DNA of 64,000 nt from Parcubacteria group bacterium (GCA_016217555.1 JACRHW010000017.1:5093-69092); one strand, 5' to 3'; shown: positions 5,267-39,754, numbered from the stretch's first letter. Made by a program: numbers and translations. The notes: generated by a model not told the origin, from the letters alone.

Positions 5267-7744
5267 TTGTCTGAGAGTGATCTGAAATCAGAAGAGCGTG
5301 ATAATGAAGTACGAAAAGAAGGAGTTGTTTTTCAAGAAAAATTACGCGAACGAAATGAGTATGATGAAAAGCCTGATAGGGTTTTTGTTGTTTCTCGTGG
5401 CACGTTTGGGGAGTTTGAGGGGGCTATTACCAATCCAGAAGTATCATTGAAGGTTGGCGATCCAATCTTGTTAAAGAATCAAGAGGGAACAACGGTTGAT
5501 AGGCTAGTGACAGCGGAAGATGTTGAAAAACAACGCCTGATTAATAGCAATCGAGATTATCTTGGGGCTAAGGGTGGAGATCCTTTGCTTTGGGGCAGTG
5601 TTCAGGCTGAAGCCTGTAGTAAAAGAGCAGATGACATAAGCTCTAAATTATTAGAACTCCCTTCTTACAAAGGGGCTAATGCCAAGGAGCAAGTTGAATT
5701 AAGACAGATTTTTGGAGAGACTTCATCGCATATAGATAAGATGAAAGAGGACATGAAAGCTGAAAATGTTGAGAAGATGATTTCCGAGAAAATATTTTTT
5801 GGAAATGGGTCCGAAGAGGACGTTAAGAAATATAATTCTCTTCCGGAGGATCAAAAGAAGGCATTTAGAGAAGACAAGGTTAAGGATGTATTTTCTGGAA
5901 TAGCTGCGAAAGAAGTTGGAAAAATGAAACTTTCTGAAGAAGAGGCAATCCAAAAAATGGTAATAGAAGATATGGCAAAGCAGGGGAAGAATCCTACCAA
6001 AGAGGAGGTGTTGGATATTTTGAATGCTGGTGGTGGGGCTGGGAGGGTAGAGGCATTCGCTGAATTTAAGAGGAGGCAGCTGGAAGCAACAGAAAAAGAA
6101 AATATGTTTTGTGCGAATCAAGGAGATATTAAGGCGCTTGATCAGGCCCTCAAGGATTTAAATAATCCCGAGCTCAGTAAGGATAAAATTAAAGATGTTT
6201 TGCGCAAAATTAGTGGAAATTCTTTAAATGCTGCTGTTGATATTTCTTTCGCAAGGCAGGCAAAAAGAGATGGTTTTGATCGTGTATCAACTAAAGCTGC
6301 TGACCCGGAAATAATAGTACCACCAGTTGGTACGGATGGTACTTCTTCGTCGTGGATGCCGGGTGGGTATCCTGGAGAAAGGCATACTGTATCACCACTA
6401 CCACCCGAAGGGACACCGCCTCCATCATGGACTCCTGGTGGATATCCAGGAACTCGATATGATGTAAAGCCATTACCACCAGGAGGCCCAGGCCCTGGTC
6501 CGGATGGTCCTATTGGCCCAACGGGACCCGAAACCCCCCCCATTGGACCTCGTGGGCCAGAGAGAGTGGTATTTGTGCAGGATCTAAAAAATGAATACGA
6601 CCGATTGCGCGATGTATATATTATGGATCGTCGCGCAACGCGTGGAGCTGGTTTGGAGCGTGGAATTCTTGAGAGGGATAGAGCTGATATGGAACGCGCC
6701 AAGGAGGCGTATCTTGGTGCGCAGATGAGAGCTGCCATGGAGTCGGTGAGAAGCGCTACGGCAGGGATGGAGGGTGAGGAGGCCGCAAGGGCACAGACTG
6801 AGGCGCTTACAGCAATTGGACTTGATTTGAATACGCGACTTGATGCGCAATTCCTTCAAAGTGAACGCGAGCGTGAACCAAACGGATGGTATGCAAAATT
6901 TAATCGTTTTTGGATGAGTAAGGCGGGGAGTGCCGTGAAGGTGGTTGGTGGTGTTGGTTTAACCACAATCGGAGGATTCACGGGGTTGTTGCCGCTTGTT
7001 GGTCTTGGGACCACCATGGCTGCCTCTGGAATTGGGTGGGAGGCTGGTAAGGTTTGGAGCTTGGGAAGAAAAAACTGGGGAATGAATAAAATTAGGACGC
7101 CAGAAGAAATTGAACGCATGGCGCCAGAACAGGTAGATGTGGTGCTCAATTCTCAACGTGAACTTATGCGTAGGCAGGGTCGTGTGGATCCTGAACGCGT
7201 TGCTACGATACAAGCACTTGAGGCGCGACGTGATCAAATTCTACAAGAACGCATGAGGGAGCGTGTGCAACGCATGATTCTCGAGGAGGGCGGATTGTCG
7301 TCAGAGAATATCACACGAGCAACGACAGACGCGTTAAATCTTGAAAATGGTTCATTTCTAAGAACTGGTGAGGCGACAGATGAACGTGCTAGAGCTTGGG
7401 AGATACGAAGAAGGAAGATCGCTGGTATCGCGGGTGGTATAGGTGTCGGGCTTGCAAATTTGGCGGCTCAATGGGGTGCAGCCAGCGTCAATTTTGTAAA
7501 CGATGCGGCGACGCGTACTGCGATGAGAGCCGATTATAACAAGGATGGTGTTTGGAATTGGGTGAGAAATAATGGAAAAGAATATTGGGATACTGCGAGA
7601 CAAACATGGCATTCCACTGGTGGGACTGGTGGATTCTCTGGCGCAAAAGAAGTCATTCTCAATGTTCCAAATGAGGGCTTTGCATCATACTCATACCCTA
7701 GTCATCAATACCCGGCAGGATTCACCGAGGGTGTAACATTCTAA
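5267..7744 (+). CDS. hypothetical 825-aa protein: charged N-terminal half, tandem Pro-rich repeat, two Gly-rich hydrophobic segments
   Basis: long uninterrupted ORF (TTG start uncertain); repeat W-x-PGGYPG-x-R-x-x-V-x-PLPP twice; no family recognised. Confidence 0.6.
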   Translation: MSESDLKSEERDNEVRKEGVVFQEKLRERNEYDEKPDRVFVVSRGTFGEFEGAITNPEVSLKVGDPILLKNQEGTTVDRLVTAEDVEKQRLINSNRDYLGAKGGDPLLWGSVQAEACSKRADDISSKLLELPSYKGANAKEQVELRQIFGETSSHIDKMKEDMKAENVEKMISEKIFFGNGSEEDVKKYNSLPEDQKKAFREDKVKDVFSGIAAKEVGKMKLSEEEAIQKMVIEDMAKQGKNPTKEEVLDILNAGGGAGRVEAFAEFKRRQLEATEKENMFCANQGDIKALDQALKDLNNPELSKDKIKDVLRKISGNSLNAAVDISFARQAKRDGFDRVSTKAADPEIIVPPVGTDGTSSSWMPGGYPGERHTVSPLPPEGTPPPSWTPGGYPGTRYDVKPLPPGGPGPGPDGPIGPTGPETPPIGPRGPERVVFVQDLKNEYDRLRDVYIMDRRATRGAGLERGILERDRADMERAKEAYLGAQMRAAMESVRSATAGMEGEEAARAQTEALTAIGLDLNTRLDAQFLQSEREREPNGWYAKFNRFWMSKAGSAVKVVGGVGLTTIGGFTGLLPLVGLGTTMAASGIGWEAGKVWSLGRKNWGMNKIRTPEEIERMAPEQVDVVLNSQRELMRRQGRVDPERVATIQALEARRDQILQERMRERVQRMILEEGGLSSENITRATTDALNLENGSFLRTGEATDERARAWEIRRRKIAGIAGGIGVGLANLAAQWGAASVNFVNDAATRTAMRADYNKDGVWNWVRNNGKEYWDTARQTWHSTGGTGGFSGAKEVILNVPNEGFASYSYPSHQYPAGFTEGVTF

Positions 7745-29922: not shown

Positions 29923-31884
29923 ATGTCTGACGCACAATTTGATCTCGCTATTGGGGAGACGAACTTTCGCAACCAACGCGTGAGATTTGGTATTCGCCAA
30001 GACGATCGTAGGCGTCATACATATGTAATAGGTAAAAGCGGTATGGGAAAGAGCGTACTCCTTGAAAATATGGCCATCCAGGATATGGAGGCGGGGCGTG
30101 GTCTCGCATTTATTGATCCTCATGGAGATACCGCTGAGAAGCTTTTGGATTTTGTCCCAAAGTCTCGTATTAACGACGTTATTTACTTTGATCCTTCGGT
30201 GCTTGATCATGCAATCGCCCTTAACCCCATGGAAAATGTATCTATTGATCGGCGTCATCTTGTGGCATCGGGGCTTATGAGCGTGTTTAAGAAAATATGG
30301 CCTGATGTGTGGTCTGCGAGAATGGAATATATTTTGAATAATTGCCTCATGGCGCTTCTTGAGATTCCCGATGCAACACTTCTTGGTGTCATGCGTCTTC
30401 TAAACGACAAGGATTATAGAAAATATGTTATCGATCAGCTTACTGATCCTCTCGTGCGAGATTTTTGGACGAAGGAGTTTGCGCGTTATAAAGACCAGTT
30501 TCAGACGGAGGCAATTGCGCCTATTCAAAATAAGATTGGTCAGCTTACCATGAATCCTCTTATCCGTAATATTATTGGACAACCCAAATCGACCATTGAT
30601 ATTCGAAAAATAATGGATGAAGGAAAGATTTTTTTGGTAAATCTCTCTCGTGGGAGAATTGGAGAGGATAATAGCAGCATCCTTGGTTCTTTGCTCGCCA
30701 CAAAACTTCAGCTCGCAGCTATGAGTAGGATTGATATTCCACGCGAGGAGGACAGAAGAGATTTTTATTTGTATATTGATGAGTTTCAACATTTTGCGAC
30801 GCCGTCATTTGCTGCCATTCTTGCCGAGGCGCGCAAGTTTCATCTCAATCTCATCGTAGCTAATCAATACATGACTCAGATGGATGAGACGGTGCGAGAC
30901 GCCATAGTAGGAAACGTAGGGACTATGATGGTGTTTCGCATTGGTGCAGACGACGCCGAGTTTTTTGAAAAGGAGATGTTCCCTGTATTTCTTATGACTG
31001 ATTTGGTAAATCTTCCTCGTGCCCAAGTTATTATGAAGCTTATGATTGACGGGGCAACTTCTCCGCCTTTTTCCGCAGTGACACTTCCTCCGGCATCAAA
31101 ACCAGAGGTCAGTTTTCGTGATGAGATTTTGAAGGTTACCTACTCCACTTATTCTATTGCTCGTGAACGCGTAGATGAGATTATAAATGAATGGTTGAGT
31201 ACTAATTTTGTTTCTGACAAAGATGGTGGTGTCGATGGCGTCATTCCAGGAGGTGTAGCTCCCCGCGAAGGTGTTGGGGCAAGTCAAGACGTGGGTGTAC
31301 AACCTCAGCGTGAGATGTTTAACGCGGTGTGTTGGAATTGTACCGCAGAGACGCAGATTCCTTTTCAGCCCGATCCAAAGTGTGCAGTATATTGCAAAAA
31401 CTGTCTTAAACTTATTCAAGCCGGGAAGATTCTTCCACCGACGCGTCCAAGAGGTGGAGCACCTCTTCCGTCACAAGTACAACAGCAAAGCGCACCTCCT
31501 ATGCCGCCGTCACCACTACAAGCACAACAACCCGTCGTGAAACGGCAAGATGTTTCGTCTGTTCGCCAAGAAACTCCAATAGTAAAGGAATCACAGCAAG
31601 CACCTCGCCCACAATATGTTTCCGGGCAACATATGTCTTCCCAACCTCAAGCGCCGCAGTCTTCTGGGTCATCAGAGCAACCACCTATGCAACAATCGCA
31701 ACAAAACATTTCTTCGAGGTCACAACCTCTACAGGTACAACATTCATCTGCGACATCGTATCTCGACACTATGCTTAAGCAAGCTCCACCTCGCGAGGCG
31801 CGCAAGTTTGCTCCCCCAAAAAAGGAGGTAAATCTCGACGAGCTCAAAAAAGCGATTGAGGAATCTTTGAAGTCTGTGAAGTGA
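29923..31884 (+). CDS. VirD4/TraD (type IV coupling protein)-like P-loop ATPase fused to CxxC-x17-CxxC zinc ribbon and Q/P/S-rich tail
   Basis: Walker A GKSGMGKS, Walker B FYLYIDEFQHF, FIDPHGD; C-terminal CWNC-x17-CKNC; no TM segment. Confidence 0.8.
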   Translation: MSDAQFDLAIGETNFRNQRVRFGIRQDDRRRHTYVIGKSGMGKSVLLENMAIQDMEAGRGLAFIDPHGDTAEKLLDFVPKSRINDVIYFDPSVLDHAIALNPMENVSIDRRHLVASGLMSVFKKIWPDVWSARMEYILNNCLMALLEIPDATLLGVMRLLNDKDYRKYVIDQLTDPLVRDFWTKEFARYKDQFQTEAIAPIQNKIGQLTMNPLIRNIIGQPKSTIDIRKIMDEGKIFLVNLSRGRIGEDNSSILGSLLATKLQLAAMSRIDIPREEDRRDFYLYIDEFQHFATPSFAAILAEARKFHLNLIVANQYMTQMDETVRDAIVGNVGTMMVFRIGADDAEFFEKEMFPVFLMTDLVNLPRAQVIMKLMIDGATSPPFSAVTLPPASKPEVSFRDEILKVTYSTYSIARERVDEIINEWLSTNFVSDKDGGVDGVIPGGVAPREGVGASQDVGVQPQREMFNAVCWNCTAETQIPFQPDPKCAVYCKNCLKLIQAGKILPPTRPRGGAPLPSQVQQQSAPPMPPSPLQAQQPVVKRQDVSSVRQETPIVKESQQAPRPQYVSGQHMSSQPQAPQSSGSSEQPPMQQSQQNISSRSQPLQVQHSSATSYLDTMLKQAPPREARKFAPPKKEVNLDELKKAIEESLKSVK

Positions 31885-32975: not shown

Positions 32976-33752
32976 ATGAAAACACGGCAGCGTGTATTTT
33001 GTGGGGAGATGCGCAGTAAAGCGCGGTTGGAGCATGGTCTTATTGAGATTCTTGAAAGTTATCAGGGAGAATTAGGGCACGTATCTGTCTTTTGTGTTCC
33101 GGTGAGGGTTAATCGAAGAGGCGTTGACATTGCCACGTGTATTTCAGGTCAAAGGGGGATAACCCCAAAGGATCTTGAGATATGTCTTGTTTCCGAAGAG
33201 GAAGATGATTTTATCGTTAATGGACAAAAAATTACGAAACCGGAAGGCTGGGGGCTTGTGGGTGGTGGTGTGGACATTGTCGATATTTTGAATGATGGTG
33301 GTGAAAAGGAACGCCCGCTTCCAAAAGAAAAGAAAAATGCCATTGTTCGTGAACTACTGAACAAAGCTACCACCGACGAACTTCTTGTGATTATTGAAAG
33401 TGCACTCTATCGAGAAGTTCGTGAAGAGGCTGGTCTCACTGTTGATCCTTTCTGGGGATTGTTCAAGATTGATCCGAAGGAAAATGATGATGGAACGGTG
33501 AATATTGTTGTTACTGTGCTTTGCGAAGTACTTAGTATGTCTGACGAGAGGGATGAGGAGGAGATTCGGGAAAAGCGTTTTTTCCTCACGGAACATATTG
33601 TTGAGGCAATCAAGACCGCACCGATTGTTCCAGGAAAACCGCGCTGGATGTATACTTCGCATGCAAGACGGCTTAGAAAGATTTTAACTTTTTTCGGAAG
33701 GGATTTTGAGGGTGTAATAACCGCCCTTCAACACATGTTTGGTAAATATTAA
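32976..33752 (+). CDS. Nudix-like hydrolase with a long insertion in the Nudix box
   Basis: REVREEAGL (REUxEExGU) present; upstream G/E spacing atypical. Confidence 0.5.
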   Translation: MKTRQRVFCGEMRSKARLEHGLIEILESYQGELGHVSVFCVPVRVNRRGVDIATCISGQRGITPKDLEICLVSEEEDDFIVNGQKITKPEGWGLVGGGVDIVDILNDGGEKERPLPKEKKNAIVRELLNKATTDELLVIIESALYREVREEAGLTVDPFWGLFKIDPKENDDGTVNIVVTVLCEVLSMSDERDEEEIREKRFFLTEHIVEAIKTAPIVPGKPRWMYTSHARRLRKILTFFGRDFEGVITALQHMFGKY

Positions 33753-33756
33753 CATA

Positions 33757-33790
33757 AAAAATACCCCCACCGATTGGGGGATTTTATTTA
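33757..33790 (+). terminator. rho-independent terminator
   Basis: ccccc-accgatt-ggggg + T run. Confidence 0.7.
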
Positions 33791-34185
33791 AGTGGGGATT
33801 TATAAGATTGAATGTATTGTACAATTTATGGACAAAGAGAACTCCGTGTGCTATTTTTACTTCAGCTCATTTTCGGAACACAAACGTACTCAACTTCCCG
33901 AAGAGGTGAATACCTTTTTCCGGTGAGGGAAGATCTCTCCAATTATTGCCTTGTTTTTGAAAGAGGAAAATGCTCGTGAGTGTTTCGACGCAAATGATCT
34001 TAAGCCTTGTGACGCGCGCTGGAAATTGCAGACACAGGAAGTCTTAGAAACAATTGGTTCCGATCACTCGGTCTTCATTCCTGCCAAGCCCCCCTTCGCA
34101 ATTTCATTTTAATATAATTTGTCGCCAAACCAATGGCGGCTTTTTCTTACTCCACGGACTCCTGCCCGCAGTTTTCGAGGGGTAA

Positions 34186-34211
34186 TAAAAAACCGCCCTA
34201 TGGCGATTTTC
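34186..34211 (-). terminator. terminator for the minus-strand Ntn-hydrolase gene (bidirectional hairpin)
   Basis: aaaaaaccgcc-ctat-ggcgatttt. Confidence 0.65.
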
Positions 34212-34215
34212 TGTG

Positions 34216-34779
34216 TTAACTCCCAAGTTTCACAAAAACAAATGGTTTTCGAACCCCAGTAGAAAACCTTTGTGCGGCCTCAAGTGCAATGTGTACCCTC
34301 CTTTTTAAATTTCTATCTTTCTGGGATGTATACAAAGAACCTTTGGCCGCGTCGGATCCGCAACCCACTGCACCGAATGGATCCATTGGTTCCTCGACCT
34401 GATAATCATTATAAATAACAAAAATCCTTCCAAGAAGTCCTATAATAAATGTACCTCCGCTTTCCCGTCCTTTTTCTCGTTCAGCCCAACCACCTTTTTT
34501 AAAACATTTTCTTAAACTAAAAATAAACTTCTTAACCATGAATCCGTAAAGATCTTTTCTCGCCCTTGCATCAACCTTTGGAAGCGTTAGTTCATACTGA
34601 ATTAATTCACCCATTCTAAAACTTGTCGTAAAGCCAAAGACCCATTTTGTTTTATCCAAACCAGTTCTCTGAAAAACTTTTCTATCTTTTCGAATTGTTA
34701 AATCGGAACCTCCGACACCTGCAGAATCTCCCCCCATCACAATATTTTCTCCGTCTGTCGCTATCGCAATGCATGTCAT
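34216..34779 (-). CDS. HslV/proteasome-beta-like N-terminal-nucleophile threonine peptidase (orphan)
   Basis: after Met removal Thr1, Asp17 (GGDSA) and Lys33 (RKDRKVF) fall exactly at HslV catalytic positions; AVGCGSD matches the GSG loop; strong SD. Confidence 0.75.
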   Translation of the reverse strand: MTCIAIATDGENIVMGGDSAGVGGSDLTIRKDRKVFQRTGLDKTKWVFGFTTSFRMGELIQYELTLPKVDARARKDLYGFMVKKFIFSLRKCFKKGGWAEREKGRESGGTFIIGLLGRIFVIYNDYQVEEPMDPFGAVGCGSDAAKGSLYTSQKDRNLKRRVHIALEAAQRFSTGVRKPFVFVKLGS

Positions 34780-34927
34780 TTGTCCGAACCTCCTAATGGA
34801 TTTTAAACGAACTATACATAAATTAACATGGATAGTTTGTATTGTCTACAAAACTCGGTTCGAACCATTCAAATCGCTAGTGTATTCAAGACAAAAGAGG
34901 CATTTCTGCCTCTTGAGTCTGCCAGAG

Positions 34928-35000
34928 TGGACCGGAGCGGACTCGAACCGCTTACCTCGTCATTGCAAATGACGCGTTCTACCAGGTGAACTACCGGCCC
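34928..35000 (-). tRNA. tRNA-Ala(UGC)
   Basis: GGGCCGG/CCGGTCC acceptor with G3:U70, anticodon loop TTTGCAA, T arm AGCGG-TTCGAGT-CCGCT. Confidence 0.95.
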
Positions 35001-35732: not shown

Positions 35733-37034
35733 ATGGTTAAAAAATCAATTTTGTTTTTATTAGGTTTTATTATCATATTTTTAGTAGTGTTTGGTGTCGT
35801 AAAGAAATATCATATTTTTTCACGGTTTGTATCTCTACGTGGTTCGTCGTTGTCTGAACTGTCTTTTGAGGATGCATTAAAACAGGGTTTTCAGAAGAAA
35901 ATTCAGAGAGAGGTCCTCCTTGCCACAACATCAGACAAAATAACACTAGAAAGGAAGGAGGAATATGTTGCCGTAGTAGACTACGAACAGAGAGTAATTC
36001 GTGCCATAGAGAAGTCGTCGCCTGCGGTAGTGAGTGTGATTATCTCTAAAGATGTGCCAGTACTCGAGCAGTATTACGCAACCCCTCTTAATAACGATCC
36101 ACTTTTCCAAGATTTTTTTGGGGGACAAGTACAGATTCCTCAGGTGCGTCAAGGGGGGGTAGAGCGTAAGGAGGTGGGAGGGGGCTCGGGGTTTATTATT
36201 TCTTCCGATGGTCTTATCGTGACTAATAAACACGTTGTTTCTGATCCGAATGCTTCGTATATTATATTGCTTAATGATGGGAAGAGATTTCCTGCAAAGG
36301 TGCTTGCGAAAGATGCACAGCAGGATATGGCAGTTCTTAAAATAGAGGCAAGTGGGCTTCCTACTCTTTCGTTGGGAGATTCTGATACGGTGAGAATCGG
36401 GCAAACGGCAATTGCAATCGGAAATTCATTGGGTGAATTCCGGAATACTGCTTCTACCGGAATAATTTCCGGATTGGCGCGTACTATTACCGCAGGAGGG
36501 GGTGGTATCGTGGAGACACTTCAGGGAGTTATTCAGACTGATGCGGCAATCAATCAGGGGAATTCGGGTGGGCCACTTCTTAATCTTCGTGGTGAGGTAA
36601 TTGGTGTTAATGCGGCAATAGCTCAGGGTGCTCAGAGTGTTGGATTTGCCATTCCTATCAACAAAGTAAAACGTGCTATTGAGGATGTGAAAGCTACCGG
36701 AAAGATCTCCGCTCCCTACCTTGGAATACGGTATGTTATTCTTGATGAGATAGTACAAAAAAAAGAGGGGCTAGGTGTTTCTTATGGTGCTTTCGTCCGT
36801 AGTGGTGAGAAGGGTGGCGTAGCCATTGTTCCCAATTCTCCTGCAAAGAAGGCGGGTATTAAAGAAAGGGATATTATACTCGAGGTTAATGGCAAGAAAG
36901 TGACCAAGGACGTTCCCTTGACCGATATAGTAAGCCAGTATAAGGTAGGGGATACGTTGACGCTTAAGGTCTTGCGTGGGAGCGAGACGATTGAAGTTAA
37001 AATAACCCTAGAACAAAGACCAACAAATCTTTAA
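35733..37034 (+). CDS. HtrA/DegP-family serine protease with PDZ domain
   Basis: catalytic triad context TNKHVV / DMAVLKI / GNSGGPLLN; C-terminal PDZ. Confidence 0.92.
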   Translation: MVKKSILFLLGFIIIFLVVFGVVKKYHIFSRFVSLRGSSLSELSFEDALKQGFQKKIQREVLLATTSDKITLERKEEYVAVVDYEQRVIRAIEKSSPAVVSVIISKDVPVLEQYYATPLNNDPLFQDFFGGQVQIPQVRQGGVERKEVGGGSGFIISSDGLIVTNKHVVSDPNASYIILLNDGKRFPAKVLAKDAQQDMAVLKIEASGLPTLSLGDSDTVRIGQTAIAIGNSLGEFRNTASTGIISGLARTITAGGGGIVETLQGVIQTDAAINQGNSGGPLLNLRGEVIGVNAAIAQGAQSVGFAIPINKVKRAIEDVKATGKISAPYLGIRYVILDEIVQKKEGLGVSYGAFVRSGEKGGVAIVPNSPAKKAGIKERDIILEVNGKKVTKDVPLTDIVSQYKVGDTLTLKVLRGSETIEVKITLEQRPTNL

Positions 37035-37135
37035 CTCAAAAATCAAAATGCAAAACTACAACTAAAAACTGAACGAACCAGCAAAAAAGTTTTATGGTTT
37101 TTAGTTGAAGTTTTGACTTTTGATTTTTAATTTTT
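37034..37135. repeat. 'caaaa-word' palindromic element, copy A3
   Basis: ctcaaaaatcaaaatgcaaaactacaactaaaaac ... gtttttagttgaagttttgacttttgattttt. Confidence 0.8.
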
Positions 37136-37141
37136 TACACC

Positions 37142-39754
37142 ATGTTTGCCCCATTTAATCGTTTTACATTGAAGGCTCAGGAGGCGATTCAGGCGGCGCA
37201 GGATCTTGCTCTTGAGCGGAATAATGCTGAGCTTAAATCACTCCATCTTTTGGTTGCCCTCCTTGATCAGGAGGAGTCTTTGGTATTTGTTGGGCTTGCA
37301 AAGTTGGGGGTAAATTTGAATTCATTGCGTGCCGCAGTTGAAGTCGAACTCAATCGCCTTCCTCGCGTCGCAGGAGGTGCGCAAAAGGCCCAGCTTTATA
37401 TTTCACAGGAGATGATGCAGATCCTCGAGATTGCGTCTCGAGAGGCGGCTAAAATGAAAGATGAGTTTATCTCGTGTGAACATCTCTTTCTTGGTGTGCT
37501 TGAGGTCGCATCAAGGAGTCGTGAGGTGTTGAAGAATTTTGGAATAAATTATGCAGAGTTTGTAAAAACCCTCCTTGATGTAAGGGGGGGTATGCAGGTG
37601 AACGACGAAACACCAGAGACGAAGTTTAAGACACTTGAAAAATACGCAATCAATCTTACTCAGCTTGCGCGTGAGGGGAAACTTGATCCCACTATTGGGA
37701 GGGACAATGAGCTGAGGCGATTAATACAAATTCTTTCGCGCAGGACAAAGAACAATCCTATTTTAATTGGTGAGCCAGGGGTGGGAAAGACGGCGATTGT
37801 TGAGGGGTTAGCGCAGCGCATTATATCGCAGGATGTACCTGATTTGCTTCAGGGAAAGGAGGTGATTTCACTTGATCTGGGGGCGCTTATTGCTGGTACT
37901 AAGTTTAGAGGTGAGTTTGAGGACCGTCTGAAGGCGTTTATCAAAGAACTTCAAAAGCAGCAGGGGAGGTACATTCTTTTTATCGATGAAATTCATATGA
38001 TTGTAGGGGCTGGTGCTGCAGAGGGGGCGGTTGATGCAGCAAATCTATTAAAATCTCCCCTTGCACGAGGAGAGCTACGTGCCATTGGAGCGACAACGCT
38101 CAAGGAGTATCAGCGACATATCGAGAAAGATGCGGCGCTCGAGCGTAGATTTCAACCTATTCTTGTGGAGGAGCCAAGTATCGAGGATAGTATCGCTATC
38201 CTCCGCGGTCTTAAAATTAAATATGAAATGCATCATGGTGTCAAAATTTCTGATGGTGCTATTGTCGCGGCGGTAAATTTAGGAAGTCGTTATATTTCTA
38301 ATCGCTTTTTGCCCGACAAGGCGGTTGATCTTATAGACGAAGCTTCATCAAGTGTAAAGATTGAGATGGGGTCTATGCCAGTAGAACTTGAGAAGGGTTC
38401 TCGCCTTATTACTCGGCTCGAGATAGAAAAAGAATCGCTTAAGAAAGAGTTGTCGATGGTAAGTAAGAAGCGTCTTCACGAGATAGAGATCGAGCTTACA
38501 AAACTCCATGGAGAAAAGGATGGCTTGATGGGGCAATGGAAAAGCGAAAAAGATGCAATAGAAAAGGTGAACGTATTGCACCGCTCTATTGACGAATTTA
38601 AGCAAGATGCCGAGCGCTACGAACGGGAGGGTGATCTTGAAAAGGTTGCCGAGCTTGTGTATGGAAAAATTCCGCATGCAGAGAAAACACTGACGAATCT
38701 CGAAAGAAAAACAGCAAAAGCACAGCAAAGTTTCCAATTTGTAAAGGAAAAAGTTACCGAGGAGGAGATCGCAAAGGTGGTTTCGCGATGGACGGGCATC
38801 CCTGTTCACAAAATGCTTGAGGGCGAATCTGAAAAACTAAGAACGATGGAGGAGGTGCTGCATAGGCGGGTGGTGGGGCAGGAGGAGGCGGTTACCGCCG
38901 TTTCCCGGGCTATTAAGAGAAGTCGTCTTGGACTTTCTGACGAAAATAAACCGATCGGCTCCTTCTTGTTTTTGGGGCCTACAGGAGTGGGAAAGACAGA
39001 GCTTGCAAAAACGCTTGCTGATTTTATGTTTAATGATGAAAATGCAATTATTCGTCTTGATATGTCTGAGTATATGGAACAGCATTCTATTGCGAAGCTT
39101 ATCGGTTCTCCTCCGGGATATGTCGGATATGATGAGGCGGGGCAACTTACTGAAATCGTAAAACACAGGCCATACTCTCTTATTCTTTTTGATGAAATCG
39201 AAAAGGCACATCCCGAGGTCTTTCATATTCTTCTTCAGGTTCTCGATAATGGGCGCCTTACCGATTCGAAAGGGAGAATGGTGAATTTCAAGAATACGAT
39301 TATTATTATGACCTCAAATATTGGAGGGGAGTTTATCCAGGAGGGAAATCTTGGATTTGCAATGGGAGATAGGTCGGTGGGAGAGGTAAATACCAAAATT
39401 AGAATTCAAGATGCGCTTAAGGGCTATTTCCGCCCCGAATTTCTTAATAGAATCGACGAAATTGTGATTTTTAATGCTTTGCGTGAAGAGGATTTGGAAA
39501 AAATTATTGATCTACAATTAACACAAGTGAGAGAGCGTCTTGCTAAAAAGAATATCGTTTTAAAGATAGACGAAAAAGCACGGAAATATCTTGTCGAGCA
39601 TGGCTATGATCGCGATTTTGGAGCGCGCCCCCTGAAGCGTCTTATACAAAAGCTTGTCGTAGATGCTGTTGCTCAAAAGCTTATTTCCGGAGAACTTAAG
39701 GAGGGCAGGGTGAATGTATCGATGAGGGGACAGGAACTTGTCTTTAGCCGGTAA
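37142..39754 (+). CDS. clpB: ATP-dependent chaperone ClpB
   Basis: Clp N domain, two AAA+ modules ([16 protein letters not shown]), long middle coiled coil. Confidence 0.97.

Follow-up and report, generated by a model that had tools for sequence, protein, structure and literature searches.

The gene considered here lies on the minus strand of a 64,000-nucleotide stretch of Parcubacteria group bacterium DNA (the window, whose numbering is used throughout), where positions 34216 to 34779 encode a proteasome-like N-terminal-threonine peptidase of 187 residues plus the stop codon, very probably of the AAH type (phrog_1040). Its product begins MTCIAIATDGENIVMGGDSAGVGGSDLTIRKDRKVF and is identical to MBI5421253.1, deposited as 'hypothetical protein HZA35_02970' from a Parcubacteria group bacterium metagenome-assembled genome (MAG). 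Residue numbers count the initiator methionine unless they are called mature. The ATG (34777-34779) is the first start codon past the upstream in-frame stop and therefore no propeptide or N-terminal extension can be encoded. A Shine-Dalgarno sequence, AGGAGG (34789-34794, minus strand), stands 9 nucleotides 5' of this ATG. Beginning 4 nucleotides past the stop codon, the hairpin AGAAAAUCGCC-AUAG-GGCGGUUUUUU (34187 to 34212, minus strand) combines an A-tract, a GC stem and a U-tract, and the 76-nucleotide region that contains it folds with a z-score of -3.47. An intrinsic terminator of the peptidase gene is plausible at this site, although it is not among the hits of a simple terminator scan. 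Upstream, and likewise on the minus strand, lies a tRNA-Ala(UGC) gene (34927-35000), which is context and not part of the peptidase gene; a terminator-like hairpin reported by the scan between the two (34914-34895, minus strand) suggests separate transcription units. This arrangement fits the view that the peptidase gene forms its own transcription unit. A preliminary description, made from the DNA alone, had already placed a 187-residue reading frame here, without propeptide, monocistronic, downstream of tRNA-Ala and with its own strong Shine-Dalgarno sequence and terminator, and our analysis recovered the same frame, sequence and signals.

The catalytic residues of the protein match those of HslV. 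In an ungapped HMMER alignment of the N-terminal region with Haemophilus influenzae HslV (1g3i), mature Thr1, Asp17 and Lys33 coincide position for position with the HslV residues, as had been claimed from inspection of the sequence. Conservation was counted in an alignment of 45 homologs with 46-67% identity, in which T2, G16, G17, D18, D32, K34, G49, S53, R55, G139 and G141 are invariant. Because these residues are invariant across all 45 homologs, the catalytic match is not due to chance. The predicted nucleophile, Thr2 (mature Thr1; codon 34774-34776, this and the following codons on the minus strand), was found in 45/45 homologs and in 35/35 members of a second set. Asp18 (mature Asp17; 34726-34728) stands within an invariant GGD motif, and Lys34 (mature Lys33; 34678-34680) is the further member of the catalytic triad. 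A Met-Thr start was present in all 35 diverse members examined, four phage copies among them. Methionine aminopeptidase favours a small second residue, and we therefore infer that removal of the methionine exposes Thr1.

Profile alignment extends the correspondence beyond the triad. With hhalign, the segment AVGCGSDAAKGS of the peptidase was paired with AIGSGGPYAQAA of HslV; in the N-terminal segment hhalign sets one 3-residue gap differently from HMMER, and we prefer the ungapped HMMER register because the conservation pattern of the family agrees with it. The invariant Gly49 (34633-34635) aligns with the 'AGFAG' segment of HslV, is the equivalent of the oxyanion-hole glycine (Gly47 in the proteasome, Gly45 in HslV) and opens the signature GFT[TS]SFRMG. 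Moreover, G139-C140-G141 (34357-34365) are equivalent to the G-S-G loop of the proteasome and HslV. The preliminary description had equated AVGCGSDAAKG with this loop, and hhalign indeed places AVGCG on AIGSG of HslV. According to this alignment the serine of the loop is replaced by cysteine in most of the family, the window protein included. Taken as a whole, the protein is probably a real, active threonine peptidase that works without a partner.

The family also has motifs outside the catalytic set, namely the invariant residues D32, S53, R55 and Q127 and the stretches GFTTSFRMG, DYQV and RxPF. Speculatively, the S1 pocket may be lined by the invariant D32, F36, V47, T51 and the invariant R55, which would correspond to the S1 positions 31, 35, 45, 49 and 53 of the proteasome. 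By this positional homology, the invariant Asp32 and Arg55 would hint at a defined polar specificity.

A predicted model of the protein showed a confident proteasome-like fold, the alpha-beta-beta-alpha arrangement of N-terminal nucleophile (Ntn) hydrolases, with helices H1-H4 present. The C-terminal S12/H5 element is missing and the chain ends in a beta strand formed by residues 180-185. When the model was used for a structural search, BPH (beta-proteobacterial proteasome homolog) and HslV were the top matches, with other Ntn hydrolases such as penicillin acylases, ceramidases and NAAA as distant ones. DSSP analysis of the model places the H2-S7 connection, the 'pore loop' position, at residues 96-110 (GGWAEREKGRESGGT; 34450 to 34494, minus strand): H2 ends at residue 95, the next core strand comprises residues 111-115, and the 15 residues between them include a small beta hairpin. 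Three basic and three acidic residues give this loop a net charge of 0. In the hhalign comparison with E. coli HslV a gap of about 18 residues falls at the same position, where HslV has 'merely a short linker' (PMC5777263). In the partnerless BPH, the corresponding loop is long, highly acidic and thought to govern access (PMC8665760, PMC5777263). The homolog alignment also revealed a 5-residue insertion in the S3/S4 hairpin, LDKTK (residues 41-45; 34645 to 34659, minus strand), which is common to the window protein and its closest relatives (about 50-67% identity) and is absent from other members. Three of the relatives with this insertion come from named Parcubacteria or 'bacterium' MAGs.

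With regard to family identity, the window protein matched a single entry of the libraries searched, phrog_1040 'peptidase HslV family' (E 3.6e-18, 67 bits, residues 1-185), and RefSeq phage homologs bear the same product name. Other public names are inconsistent: NCBI lists a 'hypothetical protein', JGI and UniRef label many members 'ATP-dependent protease HslVU (ClpYQ) peptidase subunit', and a Mesorhizobium UniRef entry is called '20S proteasome A and B subunits'. Fuchs, Alva and Lupas described 22 new proteasome homologs in 2021 (PMC8665760). One of these, AAH (representative WP_035979212, KEGG OC.661151), is a compact group I homolog without insertions that lacks both a propeptide and the C-terminal S12/H5 element and has BPH and HslV as its nearest relatives. 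Actinobacteria have the most AAH members, and many phages carry the gene, though actinophages do not; the homolog comprised 240 nr90 sequences in 2021 and was spread by phages into Firmicutes and Bacteroidetes (PMC8665760). Our family is likewise compact (about 180 residues), with H1-H4, a Met-Thr start, no S12/H5 and BPH and HslV as its nearest relatives. Its distribution is centred on Actinobacteria and alpha-proteobacteria and scattered elsewhere, many records of phages that infect Firmicutes, Bacteroidetes or proteobacteria carry it with no actinophage among the hosts listed, and the gene context is orphan in both families. We are thus fairly confident that the two families are the same, an identification made from distribution and architecture. 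In contrast to the published description, the window copy belongs to a clade of Candidate Phyla Radiation (CPR) bacteria, Parcubacteria and Saccharibacteria, that was not singled out in PMC8665760 and has the 5-residue S3/S4 insertion. Of the other homologs considered, PPH was excluded, as it has about 140 residues and no H2, and CPH, with 27 sequences from cyanobacteria, fitted less well.

Sequence searches place the protein at some distance from characterised relatives. Neither Pfam nor NCBIfam returned a match to the window protein even at E-values up to 10, and the single sequence likewise found nothing in the PDB at E up to 10, whereas a profile of the family matched HslV at 9e-5 and BPH at 5e-4. 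The hhalign comparison with E. coli HslV gave 87% probability and an E-value of 4e-6 at about 20% identity; Pfam PF00227 was weakly touched by 9 of the 45 relatives. In tblastn searches with E. coli HslV the peptidase gene remained unmatched in the window and in all loci, and the five matches obtained were at chance level (E above 6) and lay elsewhere in five loci. Judged by sequence, the window peptidase is not an HslV orthologue. The two proteins share the positions of Thr1, Asp17 and Lys33, an equivalent oxyanion glycine and GxG loop, a similar size and presumably the exposure of Thr1 by removal of methionine. They differ in that the window peptidase has no hslU partner in the 64-kb window, is not recognised by curated HslV models, has the 15-residue H2-S7 loop instead of a short linker, and has cysteine instead of serine in the middle of the GxG loop. 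Furthermore, the peptidase family is present in Actinobacteria, where HslV is absent (Table 1 of PMC8665760). Since the family is commonest precisely there, its distribution argues at the family level against dependence on HslU.

The comparison with partnerless homologs led to a correction. With BPH (PDB 5ovs, 5ovu), a ring protease without a partner is already on record, one whose pore loop is long and whose Thr1 reacts with epoxomicin (PMC5777263). However, the identity of BPH to the window peptidase is 17-18%, its loop is highly acidic whereas that of the window peptidase is long but charge-neutral, and its taxonomic distribution is unlike that of our family. Tetradecameric double rings of heptamers have been shown for BPH, while the peptidase is known here from its sequence and a monomer prediction. 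Anbu is longer (about 230-240 residues) and has a long C-terminal H5 coiled coil, which the 187-residue window peptidase lacks. Anbu operons contain ATP-grasp or transglutaminase-like genes; among the annotated neighbours of the peptidase in the window and the CPR loci no such domain was found. The beta subunits of the 20S proteasome have a propeptide and an alpha-subunit partner, whereas the window peptidase has no propeptide, is present in a single copy and has no paralogue. Profile and structure comparison upheld a proteasome-like protein, with BPH and HslV as the top matches, and the preliminary suggestion of an Anbu- or BPH-type homolog was rejected in favour of a separate branch of the group I proteasome homologs.

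The family is large. A word-indexed search yielded 581 clusters at 90% identity, and an exhaustive search of 50%-identity clusters gave 4,549 at E-values of 1e-3 or lower, 2,794 at 1e-10 and 198 at 1e-30. Nearly all cluster members have 180-200 residues and align from residue 1. In five members (P0130, P0171, P0175, P0213 and P0236) the alignment starts at their own residue 29-100; these N-terminal extensions may stem from miscalled starts or may be genuine, as propeptides or additional domains of a kind not usual in the family. Using the signature pattern GFT[TS]SFRMG, we retrieved a relative from 325 GTDB species, and taxonomy and loci were taken from the best 80 of these 325. Among these 80, most belong to Micromonosporaceae (Dactylosporangium, Actinoplanes, Asanoa) and to Rhizobiaceae or Mesorhizobium, with scattered occurrence in Parcubacteria, Saccharibacteria, Firmicutes, Phycisphaerae, Dehalococcoidia and Coxiellaceae. 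In Rhizobium lusitanum, R. leucaenae and R. freirei (loci L036, L041, L043 and L044, about 5905-6546) the frame is split into open reading frames (ORFs) of 70 and 131 residues, probably pseudogenes. Moreover, 205 phage records carry the family, mostly from large or jumbo phages of Salmonella, Escherichia, Vibrio and Aeromonas, and also from Geobacillus virus E3, a Moorella phage and a Tenacibaculum phage. The peptidase had been singled out as a notable orphan. It is an orphan, but with thousands of members in bacteria and phages it is not rare, and therefore less remarkable than had been assumed.

An ATPase partner was sought in the window and in a context sample of 86 related loci with 6-kb flanks, 80 of them from the GTDB genome scan (87 loci with the window), as well as in four phage loci. 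No AAA+ gene lies next to the peptidase in the window, in line with the earlier statement that no unfoldase is adjacent. The sole Clp-type ATPase of the window is ClpB (37142-39754), on the plus strand and thus opposite to the peptidase; the preliminary description had already set it aside as a protease partner. When this ClpB was used as a probe at E-values of 1e-6 or lower, the 86 loci and the window yielded only the window's own copy; an E. coli HslU probe matched this ClpB and the AAA domain of an FtsH about 5.4 kb away in one Parcubacteria locus (L003-5). A standard HslUV pair was rejected after probing the window and the 86 loci with E. coli HslU, E. coli HslV and the window ClpB. The search for hslU that the preliminary description had proposed was thus negative for the 64-kb window and the 6-kb flanks of the 86 loci. 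All-against-all clustering of the ORFs from the 87 loci showed neighbours shared within genera by synteny alone, in at most 14 of 87 loci, and the peptidase was the one gene common to the CPR loci, two of which also share an HtrA-like gene. Immediate neighbours in CPR loci were LeuRS, GlmS, RNase Y, a Rieske oxygenase, a BamB-like propeller and an M14 carboxypeptidase. In two Saccharibacteria loci with operon-like packing (L009, L071) a hidden ATPase was considered and dismissed, the neighbours being the BamB-like propeller, the Rieske oxygenase, LeuRS and GlmS. The four phage loci had genes for thymidylate synthase, DHFR, thymidine kinase, peptide deformylase, a Sir2-like protein, a NUDIX protein and hypothetical proteins as neighbours and no hslU beside the peptidase; small ORFs next to the phage copies had no similarity among the four phages or to the bacterial loci. 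By tblastn each locus has one copy of the peptidase. Apparent multi-copy loci are an artefact, because long spurious ORFs occur in high-GC DNA.

The other neighbours in the window comprise a TrwB/TraD-like coupling ATPase, EF-P, a NUDIX protein, a small membrane protein and an HtrA-type protease. The HtrA-type PDZ serine protease and ClpB (together 35733-39754, opposite strand) form a loose protein-quality-control neighbourhood that may well be due to chance. In one Saccharibacteria locus an HtrA-like gene (L071, 8595-9647) lies about 2 kb from the homolog. The NUDIX gene of the window (32976-33752) adjoins the peptidase, and in the Escherichia jumbo phage fEgEco12 (L090, 5827-7127) genes for a Sir2-like protein and a NUDIX hydrolase follow just downstream of the homolog. 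Residues 463-495 of the coupling ATPase (29923-31884, 653 residues) form a treble-clef zinc finger, and Q, P and S are abundant in its long C-terminal tail. The NUDIX and peptidase genes converge on a 460-bp gap (33753-34215) in which no gene is convincing; a promoter-like site (33829-33857) was noted on its plus strand, as was a terminator-like hairpin at 34121-34140. A small RNA in this gap was considered and rejected, as no credible Rfam match was obtained and the fold (z-score 0.03) was no better than that of shuffled sequences.

To place the window copy among its relatives, as had been proposed, we built a rough neighbour-joining tree without support values. In this tree the window protein groups with mostly CPR copies, namely two from Parcubacteria, one from an unclassified 'bacterium' MAG and one from Saccharibacteria, and this group lies within the bacterial radiation. 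A further copy from Saccharibacteria is placed elsewhere, and the copies of gammaproteobacterial phages are the most divergent. Occurrence in CPR bacteria is sporadic among the best 80 of the 325 GTDB species. The GC content of the peptidase gene is about 0.40, within a local range of roughly 0.33-0.50. A recent island or prophage in the window was rejected in view of this normal GC content and the cellular-type neighbouring genes. The gene was also dismissed as a component of a defence system, since PADLOC returned a spurious SduA match at E 0.053 and nothing else. In the CPR loci the upstream tRNA gene differs from locus to locus: Ala in the window (34927-35000), and Phe, Asn and Gly elsewhere (L003 7613-7686, L008 5630-5704 and L007 4787-4858). 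Insertion beside tRNA genes could explain this proximity, but so could the density at which small genomes carry such genes. In Parcubacteria GW2011_GWB1_40_14 (L003 9414-12594, which equals L010 7414-10594) an array of seven tRNA genes with duplicated tRNA-Ile(UAU) and tRNA-Val(UAC) follows just downstream of the peptidase, with thymidine kinase and NT5C nucleotidase genes after the array; taken together, these genes resemble phage nucleotide-metabolism regions.

We consider it likely that the window protein is a catalytically competent Ntn peptidase of the proteasome/HslV superfamily, belonging to the compact group I branch represented by phrog_1040/AAH, and that it acts independently of an ATPase. 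Methionine aminopeptidase would remove the initiator methionine, so that the free alpha-amino group and the hydroxyl of Thr1 could act as nucleophile, presumably assisted by the conserved residues Asp17 and Lys33, the Gly49 oxyanion hole and the G-C-G loop. By likeness to BPH and HslV, stacked rings may enclose the active sites. The long conserved H2-S7 pore loop would then limit substrate access in place of an unfoldase, as has been proposed for BPH. Given such gating by the loop and the lack of a linked AAA+ unfoldase, we infer ATP-independent cleavage, which might act on peptides, on unfolded proteins or on a narrow set of specific substrates.

Several points weigh against this interpretation. 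The serine of the G-S-G loop is a cysteine in the window protein. Activity, oligomeric state and substrates are all deduced for the whole family, the AAH label derives from distribution and architecture, and our literature search found no experimental work on AAH or on phage HslV-like peptidases. The partner search in the source genome spans 64 kb, and a distant ATPase partner beyond it is possible, while ClpB and the HtrA-type protease are found 1-2.4 kb from the peptidase gene. Finally, proteolysis of model substrates by BPH could not be shown in vitro (PMC5777263). The term 'general peptidase' may therefore be wrong for the whole group.

The last point bears on the main rival explanation, according to which the protein would be a sequence-specific processing enzyme, or a transpeptidase or ligase like connectase, with few substrates and perhaps a monomer or an open oligomer. 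Connectase belongs to the same superfamily. The invariant D32, S53, R55 and Q127, together with the motifs GFTTSFRMG, DYQV and RxPF, suggest a defined binding site, and carriage by many large phages would fit a targeted role in infection. In addition, BPH, the closest solved relative, did not degrade proteins in bulk in vitro (PMC5777263), and new quaternary structures and functions are expected among proteasome homologs (PMC8665760). We regard this explanation as unlikely, yet more serious than those that follow. A divergent true HslV, working with an HslU encoded at another site of the genome as a standard ATP-dependent HslUV protease, would account for the catalytic residues that match position for position and for the JGI/UniRef name 'ATP-dependent protease HslVU peptidase subunit' of many members, and the search of the source genome covers 64 kb. 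However, such an HslV is hard to reconcile with the lack of any NCBIfam or Pfam match at E up to 10, with an hhalign probability of 87% at about 20% identity, with a long loop in place of the short pore linker and with the absence of hslU from the window and within 6 kb in 86 loci. Besides, the family is most abundant in Actinobacteria, from which HslV is absent (PMC8665760 Table 1), and the four phage loci have the gene without hslU; we therefore hold this pairing to be highly improbable. Equally slim is the chance of an Ntn amidohydrolase whose substrate is a non-protein amide (a lipid, an antibiotic or a metabolite, for instance), for which penicillin acylases, ceramidases and NAAA among the distant fold matches could be cited.

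A further alternative concerns the origin of the CPR copy, which could be a phage-derived passenger, a moron or prophage remnant near a tRNA, with no host role or with a role in phage-host conflict only. It draws on the 205 phage records, on the spread of AAH by phages into Firmicutes and Bacteroidetes (PMC8665760), on the sporadic occurrence in CPR bacteria, on the presence, in four of the seven distinct CPR loci, of a tRNA gene 0.15-1.2 kb upstream, and on the gene of GW2011_GWB1_40_14, which adjoins the 7-tRNA array, thymidine kinase and NT5C. Nevertheless, the GC content of about 0.40 is ordinary for the region and the neighbours are of cellular type, both in the window (EF-P, NUDIX, HtrA, ClpB) and in other CPR loci (LeuRS, GlmS, RNase Y). 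The annotated neighbours include neither an integrase nor a phage structural gene, PADLOC gave no match to a defence system, and most CPR copies, except one from Saccharibacteria, form their own neighbour-joining clade with the 5-residue insertion and do not fall among the phage copies. A phage-derived passenger thus appears quite improbable, if somewhat less so than a hidden HslUV pair. We return to the ATPase-independent peptidase as the preferred reading. A bolder proposal would see in the family a self-gated proteasome-like machine without need of an ATPase, or a sequence-specific processing or ligating enzyme, whose quaternary structure and choice of substrates differ from those of HslV, BPH and the 20S proteasome and which large phages would use against host proteins and some lineages with reduced genomes would have domesticated. 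To this proposal we give about as little credence as to the main rival.

Overall, the original observation was confirmed, and the reading as a proteasome-like orphan threonine peptidase is supported with two corrections, one to its type and one to its rarity. The family has already been catalogued by bioinformatics, and the window copy adds a CPR representative but no new principle. The family is now far larger than at its first description, with thousands of 50%-identity clusters compared with 240 nr90 sequences. As a partnerless proteasome homolog of large phages, Actinobacteria, rhizobia and small-genome CPR bacteria, it is a reasonable target for studying how a ring protease could be gated without an unfoldase and for learning how phages may use such proteases.
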